Shown here piece by piece: positions 3,972-6,602 of a DNA stretch of 61,774 nucleotides. The translations under genes and the position numbers were made by a program. The notes under the pieces are model-generated. The model did not search any database and was not told where the DNA came from. It saw only the letters and a list, made by a program, of their open reading frames with translations. Each line of letters begins with the position of its first letter. Within the stretch, counting starts at the first letter, position 1. The DNA comes from an uncultured bacterium (GTDB lineage Bacteria; Chlamydiota; Chlamydiia; Chlamydiales; Parachlamydiaceae): NCBI GenBank assembly GCA_964483465.1, contig CAZABG010000003.1, positions 1 to 61,774 on the forward strand, written 5' to 3'.

Positions 3972-4328
3972 TCATTTTTGAAACATTCTAAGCGTTGGAT
4001 TGGCTTCGGTAGGAGCGTCGAAGTTGCTGTAGCCGCCATAATAGTGGGGCATATCCTCAAATCTAACGTGTGAAGGGAAAAAAGAGGGAGGAAGATTTGT
4101 GCATGAAAGAATCTCTTTATTAACGCTGAGAGTTTTGTAACCTAACAGCGCATTCTGAAGATTTTTCCAAAATTTACCGCTGCATGGATTCGTAATTATC
4201 TTTGAAATTTTATGAATTCTTTCGCGAAAGGAATAGCTTTTATACGTTTCAGTAATTTTATATTTAGTAGCTGTTAGCTCGGTTTCATCATATTCGATAT
4301 GGTTATAGCTATAATTGTGAATATTCAT
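3972..4328 (-). CDS. Small hypothetical protein (118 aa), paralog of 5356-5691
   Basis: YKSYSFRERIHKISKIITNPCSGKFWKNLQNALLGYKTL aligns with YLSYSFKERFNLLANMFKKPTCENFWKQFKIVLLGYETI in the other small ORF. It also shares an upstream motif, GTTAAGAGCTTATTAA, at 4346-4361. Confidence 0.6.
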   Translation of the reverse strand: MNIHNYSYNHIEYDETELTATKYKITETYKSYSFRERIHKISKIITNPCSGKFWKNLQNALLGYKTLSVNKEILSCTNLPPSFFPSHVRFEDMPHYYGGYSNFDAPTEANPTLRMFQK

Positions 4329-4379
4329 AAAATGATTTTATCAAATAATAGTTAAGAGCTTATTAAGAATTAGTCGCTC

Positions 4380-5363
4380 TTAAACTGGCTGTTTGTAAGG
4401 CGGAATAATATTTTCTTTGCATAGATCCCGAAAGCATGAAGGAAAAGAAACGCCATCAGGCATTTTCCATTCAGGGACGCATAAAGCGTTTTTGGGTTCG
4501 ATACCCCCAAGATTTTTTACGAGTGGGGTAACTTCAATAGCTGTAGTAATTGATTTGCAGGTCGTTATCAAATGAAGGTTAACATTCTGTCCGGCTCTTT
4601 CTTGTATAGTTTCTAACTGCTTTTTTGCGTGGCGGGTCATGAAAGGAATAATGACATACACGTTTACCGGTTTATTTTTAAAAGCGGCAAAAGCTTGAAC
4701 CTGGATTAGTTTTTGAGTGATTTCATAAACCTGGCTGCCCGAATAGCTGATATCGTCAAAAAAGACGAGATCGGTTGCCGGATGTTTAATGGAAGTTGCT
4801 TGAATGTCGACAAAATGGTCGGAATAAAGGCCAAAAGCATTAGCAAAGTCGAGGCCAAAGTAGTCTCTTGCGATTTTAGCAAGCCACCCCTGGCTTTTTC
4901 CCGCTAGAATGCCGACTTGATAAGGGCGATTATCGACAAGCTCTTTAAATTTTTCGATACAGCCGTTCAGTCCTTCAAATAATTGGTCGTAGGATATATT
5001 TTCTACATGATTGGCTAGATGCAAAAAGATTTCGTGCGTAAACACGGACTTGGCTTTTTCAAGATCGAACTTATTCTTTATAACGTTTTTGTAAGGATGT
5101 TCAAATGAGATGGGCTTTAGTGCGGTTTCATGTACAGAGAGAATTGACGTTTGTTCTTTTTTAATTACAATTTTACCTGTGAAAATACTTTTGACATCCT
5201 TCCAAGTATCGTGCGAGAAAAAATTACAGAAATCGGCGAATATCTTTTTGACAAGACTGGTTATTTTTTGCCATCTTTGTTGAACATTATAGTAATGTTC
5301 TTCCGCTTTAAACCGCGTTTGGTAATCACCATTAATTTCAGCGATAGTTAATTGTTTAATCAT
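4380..5363 (-). CDS. Two-domain protein with an unknown N-terminal half and a C-terminal phosphoribosyltransferase (type I PRT)-like fold
   Basis: The segment QVGILAGKSQGWLAKIARDYFGLDF...ATDLVFFDDISYSGSQVYEI follows the PRT pattern: strand-Gly, helix, then a hydrophobic strand-DD-x-x-x-SG PRPP loop. The preferred start is the ATG at 5363 (MIKQL). It overlaps the upstream stop as AATGATTAA. Confidence 0.6.
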   Translation of the reverse strand: MIKQLTIAEINGDYQTRFKAEEHYYNVQQRWQKITSLVKKIFADFCNFFSHDTWKDVKSIFTGKIVIKKEQTSILSVHETALKPISFEHPYKNVIKNKFDLEKAKSVFTHEIFLHLANHVENISYDQLFEGLNGCIEKFKELVDNRPYQVGILAGKSQGWLAKIARDYFGLDFANAFGLYSDHFVDIQATSIKHPATDLVFFDDISYSGSQVYEITQKLIQVQAFAAFKNKPVNVYVIIPFMTRHAKKQLETIQERAGQNVNLHLITTCKSITTAIEVTPLVKNLGGIEPKNALCVPEWKMPDGVSFPSCFRDLCKENIIPPYKQPV

Positions 5364-5691
5364 TAGATAACACCCTAATAAATCTATCATTAAGTGGGCC
5401 GTGTTCAGATTCAGAATAGGTCATTCTGAATAGGGGACCTTTTAGCGAATCAGGAGCGGGTAATCTTCTCATTGATTTGATCGTTTTTACAGAATTAATC
5501 GTTTCATATCCAAGTAGAACAATTTTGAATTGCTTCCAAAAATTCTCGCAAGTAGGTTTCTTAAACATGTTCGCAAGGAGGTTAAATCTCTCTTTAAAAG
5601 AATAAGACAGATAAGTTGTCTTAGTTTCATAATCGACTAAATATAGTCCTTCAGTGCGAGTATAGGTTGATGAGCTTGAATTAATGGTCAT
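5356..5691 (-). CDS. Small hypothetical protein (111 aa), paralog of 3972-4328
   Basis: Paralogy as described for 3972-4328. The upstream motif GTTAAGATCTTATTAA sits at 5715-5730. Its stop overlaps the start of the PRT-like gene. Confidence 0.6.
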   Translation of the reverse strand: MTINSSSSTYTRTEGLYLVDYETKTTYLSYSFKERFNLLANMFKKPTCENFWKQFKIVLLGYETINSVKTIKSMRRLPAPDSLKGPLFRMTYSESEHGPLNDRFIRVLSND

Positions 5692-5771
5692 ATAAAATAT
5701 TATAACTCTAATTTGTTAAGATCTTATTAATTTTTCAATTAGTTGTTCAAATAAGTGTTATAATATTAGAT

Positions 5772-6602
5772 ATGCAAATAGATCTTAACACACCTGTAAT
5801 ACAAGATTTACAATCCGCCCTTAGAGAAGGGCAAAAAACGGCTCTTTTTATTGGCCGCGACGATAGACAAAGCCTACCCGTAGAAGAGGGGTGGCGGTGG
5901 TTTAGCTTAAATGAAACAGTTAATGTTGATCCACCTCTAGCAACTCACATCGTCATGGATTTCAATGATGAAAACGCTATAGCTCGTATCTATCACTTAT
6001 TCAATAAAGTGGTATTCGATTGGAGTACGGTAAAATTCTGTAGTAAGCCGATGGCTTTAGTTCATAATTTATTAATTAATGACGAATCATCGGAAGCAGT
6101 ATTAGAACAATTTGCGAGAACTCTATTCTTAAAAACAGATCCTCAATATTTTGCCGAAAACTTGTACTACAATGTTGATAGCATAGAAGACTACTCATTA
6201 TTAAAACAAAATGAGAGCAGATTTGATGAATGGAAACTACAAGTAGGTGAACAAGAAGTTCAAAAACGAAAAGAGGCATTAAAAGCGGTATGGGATGGCT
6301 CTTGTTTTGCACAGGAAGATCTTGAACATGAATTTAACATCGAATTTATGTATCACATATTGGAAACTGAAAATCTAGAGGCAACGCCCTTCGATCATGC
6401 TAGTGTATTACTAAATAATGCCGAGCTTATATTAAGAGACAAGTATTTTAATTCTGTAACTAGTTTTACAGGTCTTTATCCCCATAGAGATGACGGAAAG
6501 TTAGGCAGAGTTTGGATTTTGAAGGCGCCAAAGTCTGTTAAACAATTTATTTTAAATAATTCGCTTAAAAAGGCTGAAAACTGCCTCGATAAGCTATTGT
6601 AA
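5772..6602 (+). CDS. Hypothetical protein (276 aa), divergent from the PRT-like cassette
   Basis: A clean ATG ORF with no recognised motif. TGTTATAAT (extended -10) at 5756-5764 ends 7 nt before the ATG, and there is no Shine-Dalgarno sequence. Confidence 0.55.
   Translation: MQIDLNTPVIQDLQSALREGQKTALFIGRDDRQSLPVEEGWRWFSLNETVNVDPPLATHIVMDFNDENAIARIYHLFNKVVFDWSTVKFCSKPMALVHNLLINDESSEAVLEQFARTLFLKTDPQYFAENLYYNVDSIEDYSLLKQNESRFDEWKLQVGEQEVQKRKEALKAVWDGSCFAQEDLEHEFNIEFMYHILETENLEATPFDHASVLLNNAELILRDKYFNSVTSFTGLYPHRDDGKLGRVWILKAPKSVKQFILNNSLKKAENCLDKLL

Follow-up and report, generated by a model that had tools for sequence, protein, structure and literature searches.

A chlamydial phosphoribosyltransferase-fold gene flanked by two probable copies of its own N-terminal module

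A 61,774-nt stretch of DNA from an uncultured member of the Parachlamydiaceae (GenBank assembly GCA_964483465.1, contig CAZABG010000003.1), analyzed as a whole and hereafter called the window, carries near its left end a compact cassette in which a gene of the phosphoribosyltransferase (PRTase) fold is bracketed by two small genes. The products of these small genes, small1 and small2, are very probably paralogs of the N-terminal module of about 100 residues of the enzyme itself. On the minus strand, small1 (5356-5691, 111 aa) precedes and overlaps the enzyme gene, PRT (4380-5363, 327 aa, PRTase-CE family), which is followed by small2 (3972-4328, 118 aa), the second stand-alone paralog; orf276 (5772-6602, plus strand) diverges from small1 and encodes an acidic protein of 276 aa. 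The positions of these four open reading frames (ORFs), on which the original prediction for this DNA was built, were confirmed by ORF listing. We estimate at about 50% the probability of the composite reading developed here, in which PRT is a conflict-type PRTase effector or toxin, and its N-terminal module and the free copies of this module act as regulators. Comparison loci are designated by L-numbers and library proteins by P-numbers.

The relationship between the two small proteins was predicted at about 40% identity, and BLASTP agrees (27/69 identities, 39%, E = 4e-13). The N-terminal half of PRT had been described as unknown, and its probable homology to both small proteins had thus been missed. 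This N-terminal module (N-module; residues ~1-100, about 5064-5363 on the minus strand) precedes a type I PRTase-like core (residues ~101-327), and PRT N-termini share with the small proteins the pattern Y-S-x-x-E/R-R...W-K/R...G. A first-pass hhalign comparison of the small-protein alignment with eight PRT N-termini gave P = 2.8e-4, and reciprocal searches with hidden Markov models (HMMs) of the small proteins and of the PRT N-termini returned cross-matches at E = 0.006-0.07. With a larger N-module alignment of 24 PRT N-termini, the hhalign probability reached 88.4% (P = 2.8e-6). An N-module HMM iterated on 24 PRT N-termini, and built without any small protein, was also run against 3,894 six-frame ORFs from the window and 35 loci. 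It ranked PRT genes at the top and the small ORFs after them, with seven of the eight small copies at E = 1.3e-3 to 0.029. The small2 of the window was the best non-PRT match (1.3e-3), ahead of the copies of L001 (3e-3), L035 (3.2e-3) and L004 (0.015) and of the small1 of the window (0.029); one chance ORF (E = 0.15) outranked the small1 copy of L003 (E = 0.36).

Structure prediction is consistent with this relationship. In a separate AlphaFold2 (AF2) run, small1 was modeled with a predicted local distance difference test score (pLDDT) of 81-93 over residues 1-80, followed by a disordered tail. The model comprises a beta-hairpin (residues 2-29), two helices (32-44 and 51-60) and a second beta-hairpin (62-76), and the same order of secondary structures was predicted for PRT residues 2-80. 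The N-module has an isoelectric point (pI) of 9.35 and the small proteins have values of 9.4 and 8.8, so that all three are basic. Foldseek comparison of the small1 fold with the PDB yielded nothing better than E = 0.4.

The PRTase fold that the original prediction proposed for the middle protein finds support at several levels. PRT matches Pfam PF24390 (PRTase-CE) over residues 154-258 with 30.8 bits, above the gathering score of 27 (E = 3.5e-7), and its orthologs P0002 and P0003 are listed under the same family in a precomputed table. The AF2 model, based on an alignment of 40 family members, has a pLDDT of 95.1 and a predicted template modeling score (pTM) of 0.89. At E ≤ 1e-3, Foldseek retrieved from the PDB 27 matches, all of which are uracil (UPRT), xanthine-guanine (XGPRT), adenine (APRT), orotate (OPRT) or hypoxanthine-guanine (HGPRT) PRTases or PyrR, with probabilities of 0.97-1.0; the best match reached E = 5e-5 with probability 1.0, and examples are UPRT 5e38 and XGPRT 7kl6. 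The likeness of PRT to solved PRTases lies at the level of the fold, since the sequence profile of the family found nothing significant among PDB sequences. The modeled protein thus conforms to the type I PRTase fold with its five-stranded Rossmann-like core.

The same holds for the predicted phosphoribosyl pyrophosphate (PRPP) loop, DLVFFDDISYSGSQ, which occupies residues 198-211 (4731-4772, minus strand), as had been proposed. Judged from its sequence, with a hydrophobic strand, an acidic pair and an S-G turn, it appears equivalent to the PRPP loop of type I PRTases, the final T of the classical motif being replaced by Q. Across the 40 members this loop is the most conserved motif of the family: in residues 199-211, LVFFDDISYSGSQ, positions V200, F202, D203, D204, Y207, G209 and Q211 are invariant or nearly so. 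The other most conserved positions are K156-S157 and W160 after the first core strand, P240-F241, and T267, together with a conserved C-terminal tail, EWKxPDxxSxP...PPYK. Such conservation speaks for a site of ligand binding or catalysis that has been retained, and an enzymatic activity may be inferred from it. PRT is only 67% identical between the window and L001, compared with 96% for recJ, a divergence about eight times that of recJ; its ratio of nonsynonymous to synonymous divergence (dN/dS) is 0.16 against L035 at an unsaturated dS of 0.37, and 0.05-0.10 against L003 and L001 (saturated). PRT is therefore a fast-evolving yet constrained gene.

The stop/start coupling foreseen between small1 and PRT is present: the end of small1, ...AAT GAT TAA, overlaps the PRT start, ATG ATT AAA, by 8 nt at 5356-5363 (ATGATTAA). 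An alternative ATG at 5390 would extend PRT to 336 aa; the 327-aa start is supported by its orthologs, which begin with MIKQ.... The small1 orthologs of L003 and L036 are likewise coupled to PRT, in L003 through a different overlap.

A second link between the small genes is the 16-nt motif that had been noticed before each of them. As written on the plus strand, GTTAAGAKCTTATTAA occurs twice in the 61.8 kb, at 4351-4366 and 5715-5730, each time 22-23 nt upstream of a small-ORF ATG; shuffled sequences contain on average 0.24 matches, and 3 out of 100 reach two. On the coding strand it reads TTAATAAG(A/C)TCTTAAC. Upstream of small1, the extended box (5699-5730, minus strand) consists of TTAATAAGATCTTAAC-N10-TATAAT, 7 nt and the ATG, without a Shine-Dalgarno sequence, and is kept in L003 and L036; upstream of small2 (4335-4366, minus strand), it consists of TTAATAAGCTCTTAAC-N10-TAAAAT, 6 nt and the ATG, and is kept in L004, L035 and L038. 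Both boxes lie in a repeat, D1, of 37 nt and 70% identity. All seven small-ORF copies compared (small1 and small2 of the window, small1 of L003 and L036, small2 of L004, L035 and L038) share the layout TTAATAnGATCTTAAC-N10-TA(T/A)AAT, 6-8 nt, ATG, again without Shine-Dalgarno. Since all seven carry this one layout, the unit of duplication likely comprised the promoter or operator as well as the N-module.

The composite pattern ATCTTAAC-N10-TAnnAT has five matches in the window for 0.55 expected, a number that none of 100 shuffles reached, and four of the five fall within 4335-6739. Among them, a third copy of the box, ATCTTAAC-N10-TATTAT (6716-6739, minus strand), lies in the upstream region of a neighboring helix-turn-helix (HTH) gene and points away from it; it is kept in L036 and in L001, where it is oriented toward PRT. 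A copy within the 5' coding region of orf276, GATCTTAAC, is not kept in L036 and is probably due to chance. A TATAAT-like hexamer stands 6-8 nt before each small-ORF ATG. The arrangement does not fit a canonical sigma-70 promoter, as the shared box is off the proper -35 distance and a generic promoter scan gave 14 matches for 11.4 expected; judging by its sequence, an operator or some non-canonical element is likely. As a separate observation, the start regions of small1 and orf276 are mirror images in a 27-nt inverted repeat (5689-5774, 85% complementary), and the promoter/start layout of these two genes is symmetric, as both ATGs follow GTTATAATATT(N3-4).

Comparison between lineages indicates how firmly the small genes are maintained, and several results weigh against the composite reading. 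The homology with the N-module is carried by remote-homology statistics and secondary structure rather than by superposition. The orthologs of small2 (in L004, L035, L038 and L001) have a dN/dS of 0.28-0.40, and of about 1 among the closest pairs, where substitutions are few, which amounts to weak constraint. L003 lacks small2. In L001 and L002, PRT is intact and subject to purifying selection in the absence of small1, and the small2-like frame has neither start codon nor box; the small proteins are consequently dispensable in at least one lineage. In L001, this frame (10964-11308) is in the frame of PRT, separated from it by a single TAA, and contains no ATG, GTG or TTG in its first 57 codons; it is a pseudogene or else an extension reached by read-through. 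Finally, some distant homologs of PRT have metabolic neighbors (pyrophosphatase, G6PD, dUTPase), which would be compatible with a salvage role.

These observations would best suit an alternative in which partial duplications of the PRT gene, limited to its 5' end, left the small ORFs behind as functionless relics, and PRT is a divergent enzyme of nucleotide or cofactor salvage. Each small gene is indeed missing somewhere, and NADAR proteins, which accompany some distant homologs of PRT, could be read together with the metabolic neighbors as N-glycosidases acting on riboflavin intermediates. Relics would, however, hardly persist as ORFs of 110-120 codons that remain open in DNA of ~35-39% GC across dS values above 1.6. 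Nor would they be expected to show a dN/dS of 0.13-0.18, as small1 does, with both coupling and promoter box conserved. As for salvage, PRT is patchily distributed and fast-evolving, has relatives that are giant tandem arrays, and matches no salvage PRTase in sequence. We consider this alternative quite improbable.

The cassette was originally presented as accessory DNA linked to a prophage, and phage pseudogenes do lie beside it: a portal fragment (2917-3213, plus strand; phrog_146, E = 3.7e-11; Pfam Phage_portal_3, E = 7.9e-8, under the gathering score) and MuF/head-morphogenesis fragments (3238-3866, plus strand, convergent with small2; phrog_324 over 3238-3402, E = 2.1e-19). The pseudogenes are thus real; the framing as accessory cargo is poorly supported. 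The order HTH, orf276, small1, PRT, small2 recurs in related lineages at one and the same place in the chromosome, and the cassette is under purifying selection. TLC ATP/ADP translocases are encoded in the syntenic flanks, which fits a chlamydia-like organism. L001 and L002 display the order recJ, methyltransferase (MTase), HTH, PRT, small2-like frame, MuF remnant and Tsp; L036 and L003, which come from one sample, display recJ, MTase, p251, DapF-like gene, HTH, orf276 homolog, small1, PRT and MuF remnant; and in L035 and L038, close relatives of the window organism, (PRT) and small2 are followed by Tsp without any phage remnant. Homologs of the remnant stretch 3450-3866 occur in L001 and L003 and in neither L035 nor L038. 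The cassette is therefore not currently prophage-dependent, as these last two loci keep it without the remnant. Left of the phage remnant, short ORFs on the minus strand (172-1597) with similarity to AAA_22 and ATPase_2 resemble a fragmented ATPase pseudogene.

According to Iyer et al. (2017; PMC5512222), the PRTase domains that invasive elements carry are as a rule joined to MuF in one protein or encoded alone next to it. This association underlies the proposal that the cassette is decayed prophage cargo, with a MuF-associated PRTase as in phage polyvalent proteins. It agrees with the MuF remnants that directly follow the cassette in three lineages (the window, L001 and L003) and with a structural match of PRT to a Siphoviridae "PRTase-CE domain-containing protein" (E = 3.3e-6). 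PRT is, however, convergent with MuF, neither fused to it nor co-directional, and small2 directly adjoins Tsp in the remnant-free loci. Searches for relatives were negative by tblastn in INPHARED (50,697 phage records) and in PLSDB plasmids, and in a scan of IMG/VR; PRT, the small proteins and orf276 had no match in PHROGs, and no phage genes were found in the roughly 14 distant loci whose neighbors were examined. The family distribution is chlamydial, and PRT is under purifying selection amid wrecked phage genes. It would be at most a long-domesticated gene, and we regard a cargo origin as improbable.

The distribution of the family places PRT in a wider context. An exhaustive HMMER search of 1.84 billion representatives retrieved 186 PRT-family proteins at E ≤ 1e-3, most of them of ~400 aa with a C-terminal PRT domain; the N-module was found in 24 of the top 150. 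Word-indexed protein searches yielded three close homologs of PRT and three of the small proteins; another, which used a profile of 40 sequences and was limited to 8,000 candidates, gave at least five proteins. A genome scan returned 27 loci, the best only 28% identical, of which 19 are labelled Chlamydiota, the remainder belonging to Berkiella, Oligoflexales, other bacteria of the Planctomycetes-Verrucomicrobia-Chlamydiae group and bins of the candidate phyla radiation (CPR). Of two metagenome scans, that for PRT found one distant locus and that for the small proteins nothing. The cassette is thus very rare in public data and recurs at the same position in related lineages. Homologs of PRT also lie among Ank, OTU/Peptidase_C65, RING, E2 and DSPc genes, and still others beside housekeeping genes. 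One of them, P0156 (L032, 1-17212), sits in an island of eukaryote-like genes encoding Ank, Peptidase_C65/otubain, two RING, a UQ_con E2, DSPc and dUTPase. Giant proteins with tandem series of complete PRTase-CE domains (6-12 in a few of them), none with the N-module, were also observed (P0004, P0006, P0076, P0072, P0129 and P0045): P0004 (4003 aa) has 12 copies, P0006 (3535 aa) six copies and a GDPD domain, and P0076 an APH kinase domain with two copies.

NADAR genes (PF08719, above the gathering score) accompany the PRT homolog in 9 of the 27 loci, within ~1.5 kb and in variable orientation. These loci (L010, L013, L018, L019, L021, L024, L027, L029 and L031, at ~4,200-8,200 of each) are mostly from Chlamydiota bins, L010 being labelled Verrucomicrobiae. 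The N-module, present in four of the 27, and NADAR never occur together. The NADAR partners match NCBIfam DS32_2 at ~1e-9 and the paired PRTs match DS32_1 weakly, all far under the equivalog cut-offs. That the N-terminal extension of the NADAR partners might itself be an N-module was rejected (hhalign probabilities 0.2% and 0.1%), and an HMM built from the NADAR proteins of the nine loci detected no NADAR among the six-frame ORFs of the window.

Pairing with NADAR recalls toxin-antitoxin logic, and the cassette could be a classical toxin-antitoxin or abortive-infection module with a PRTase toxin, as in ShosT, PsyrT, retron III-A and DS-32A, and the coupled small1 as its essential antitoxin. 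The overlap of PRT with a small gene upstream of it is what such a module would have, PRTase toxins are known from defense systems (bioRxiv 10.1101/2022.05.11.491447; DS-32), and distant relatives pair with NADAR as DS-32 does. There are weak matches to PADLOC PRTase_III-A (E = 0.0025) and NCBIfam DS32_1 (E = 0.0016), and the nearby DNA holds a phage remnant and an HTH gene with mad1 and AbiEi_4-like matches. Nevertheless, every defense-model score is far under its cut-off, and the locus has no DprA-like, reverse transcriptase, NADAR or non-coding RNA partner. It is also chromosomally fixed, syntenic and outside any mobile island, and no phage or plasmid homologs were found. Moreover, an essential antitoxin should not be dispensable, and the PRT of L001 and L002 is intact and constrained without a functional small gene, although some vestige of a small paralog persists in every lineage. 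A module of this classical type is accordingly an unlikely description of the locus.

A different target is envisaged if PRT and the small proteins are secreted effectors, for instance substrates of type III secretion (T3S), that modify a eukaryotic host. The concentration of the family in Chlamydiota, with further members in Berkiella and other host-associated lineages, is in line with this possibility, as are the homologs lying among Ank, OTU/Peptidase_C65, RING, E2 and DSPc genes, the giant proteins with 6-12 tandem PRT domains, and the rapid evolution of the gene in a variable chromosomal zone. Moreover, the best viral structural matches to PRT are from amoeba giant viruses (Terrestrivirus, 3.6e-10; Mimivirus LCMiAC02; Pithovirus). 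The N-terminus of PRT is, however, predicted to be folded and not a disordered T3S signal, and the NADAR pairing of its relatives points instead to self-protection. The identity of the small proteins as T3S chaperones is likewise disfavored, given their pI of 9.4 and 8.8 as opposed to the acidic class I chaperones. We judge secretion toward the host to be somewhat unlikely. The composite reading itself accommodates both a phage- or self-directed and a eukaryotic host-directed target.

The composite reading proposes the following course of events. The middle gene encodes an intact, selectively maintained PRTase-CE enzyme of a clade almost confined to Chlamydiota and other intracellular or host-associated bacteria, and its N-module, distinct from the core and basic, is an alpha/beta unit in which helices lie between two beta-hairpins. 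The small genes were probably born by duplication of a unit made of promoter and N-module; one duplicate would have become translationally coupled upstream of PRT, and the other now sits downstream. The PRT core may transfer, bind or sense a phosphoribosyl group in a conflict between organisms, in a toxin- or effector-like manner comparable to that of the DS-32 PRTase. The N-module would be the regulatory or targeting part of PRT, and its free copies could modulate the enzyme by mimicry of the N-module, either in competing for its partner or target or in docking on the enzyme. The N-module system would thereby take the place that NADAR holds in DS-32-type relatives.

A bolder version can be formulated, in which the small proteins are bacterial self-mimic regulators, governed by one duplicated operator perhaps read by the HTH protein, that have replaced a NADAR antidote within a Chlamydiota-wide and partly giant-virus-shared set of N-phosphoribosylating conflict enzymes with interchangeable safeguards. 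We offer it as speculation that is unlikely to hold in full.

The HTH protein in question (6803-7264, plus strand) belongs to the HTH_17/excisionase family of DNA-binding proteins; it has two HTH regions, and its real start is probably the ATG at 6818. It matches Pfam HTH_17 (E = 5.3e-18), TIGR01764 (E = 5.6e-12) and PADLOC mad1 (E = 5.4e-13), and its gene adjoins the PRT locus in L001, L002 and L036. From its sequence and position, it is a plausible candidate regulator acting on the shared boxes. The stretch 6659-7264, which contains the gene and ~140 nt upstream, is 95% identical to L001 in nucleotides and 99% in amino acids. Its dS to L001 and L036 is ~0.20-0.25, compared with values above 1.6 or saturated for most flanking genes, so that its synonymous sites are about 10 times more conserved than those of its neighbors; possible explanations are a recent exchange or conversion and selection on the nucleotide sequence itself.

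On the other side of the HTH gene lies a variable zone (7302-10113). It contains p251 and a DapF-like gene (7302-8815), found in the window and L036 and absent from L001, and a gene resembling tRNA/rRNA U5-methyltransferases (8863-10113), whose N-terminal half is ~83% and C-terminal half 56% identical to L001; the adjoining recJ is 96% identical. The GC content is 0.32-0.34 at 5001-7000, which comprises small1, orf276 and the region upstream of the HTH gene, compared with ~0.40 for the whole window. Concerning orf276, divergent transcription from small1 holds true as predicted, and the label of orphan does not apply strictly, as a homolog 39% identical (E = 3e-61) lies at the same position in L036. 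The gene, which is absent in L001, has a dN/dS of about 0.3, and its product has no match in Pfam, PHROG, PADLOC, NCBIfam or the PDB.

Several anti-phage systems (retron III-A, ShosTA, PsyrTA and DS-32) are now seen to employ PRTase-fold proteins as toxins, and the cited descriptions of these systems give neither the substrate of the PRTase nor the way in which it is restrained. Here, the locus is conserved across lineages and the sole partners of the enzyme are copies of its own N-module, which makes the logic of interaction directly testable; if the composite reading is true, the cassette possibly represents a new way of controlling PRTase-type conflict enzymes. The branch to which PRT belongs is centered on Chlamydiota, and our literature search on PRTase-CE/PF24390 found no paper that names the family or describes the branch. 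As this branch is tied both to the experimentally validated DS-32 architecture and to amoeba giant viruses, the same chemistry may serve both phage defense and intracellular host-microbe conflict. Even if the explanation proves ordinary, the locus would show that an enzyme gene can have partial duplicates of itself as the small ORFs on its flanks, a point relevant to annotation.

Several known families and systems can be compared with the cassette. First, PRT scores above the gathering threshold of PF24390 and shares with this family the type I PRTase-like core with its FDDxSYSGxQ loop; it differs in its additional N-module and its C-terminal EWKxPD...PPYK tail. Since the match covers positions 73-160 of the 253 of the model, PRT likely belongs to a divergent, Chlamydiota-dominated PRTase-CE branch. 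Second, the MuF-linked PRTases (Iyer et al., 2017; PMC5512222) resemble PRT in that it stands directly beside a MuF remnant; here, however, PRT has a gene of its own, on the strand opposite to MuF, and the cassette persists without MuF in L035 and L038.

Third, DS-32 is an experimentally validated anti-phage pair of E. coli, identified with DefensePredictor, that consists of a PRTase (DS-32A) and a NADAR protein (DS-32B) resembling the antitoxin DarG (bioRxiv 10.1101/2025.01.08.631726). PRT is of the same broad kind, with DS32_1 as its top NCBIfam match, and its distant homologs adjoin NADAR in one third of the loci (9/27). What sets the enzyme of the window apart is its N-module, with free copies of that module on either side. 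With 17.8 bits against a cut-off of 250 bits (NF053875/NF053876), PRT is not a DS-32 equivalog.

Fourth, the effectors ShosT, PsyrT and that of retron III-A are PRTases too (bioRxiv 10.1101/2022.05.11.491447), and ShosTA, PsyrTA (RqlHI) and retron III-A share with the cassette a PRTase-fold effector beside a small partner gene. They differ from it in that no DprA-like antitoxin, RecQ-like helicase, reverse transcriptase or msr/msd RNA is present here, and in that the partner is homologous to part of the effector itself. A ShosTA or PsyrTA identity was rejected, as small1, small2 and orf276 have no Pfam or PADLOC match and PRT matches neither ShosT nor PsyrT. Type III-A retrons were dismissed as well: Rfam at gathering thresholds found no RNA family, and no tRNA was detected, in the window; PADLOC PRTase_III-A scored 15.4 bits; and no Pfam reverse transcriptase domain was present in the ten ORFs at 172-7264, the DapF-like gene, p251 or the L036 genes from recJ to HTH. 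The original prediction, which saw no retron and assigned the cassette to no described system, therefore stands on both points.

The arrangement of an enzyme flanked by copies of its own N-module is in none of the known systems that were checked. Its nearest parallel may be one of principle. In microProtein regulation, a concept that comes from eukaryotes, small single-domain paralogs titrate a larger protein. The resemblance is an analogy of logic and not of family: as with microProteins, the small proteins of the cassette appear homologous to one domain of their larger neighbor, and their shared box suggests that they are co-regulated.

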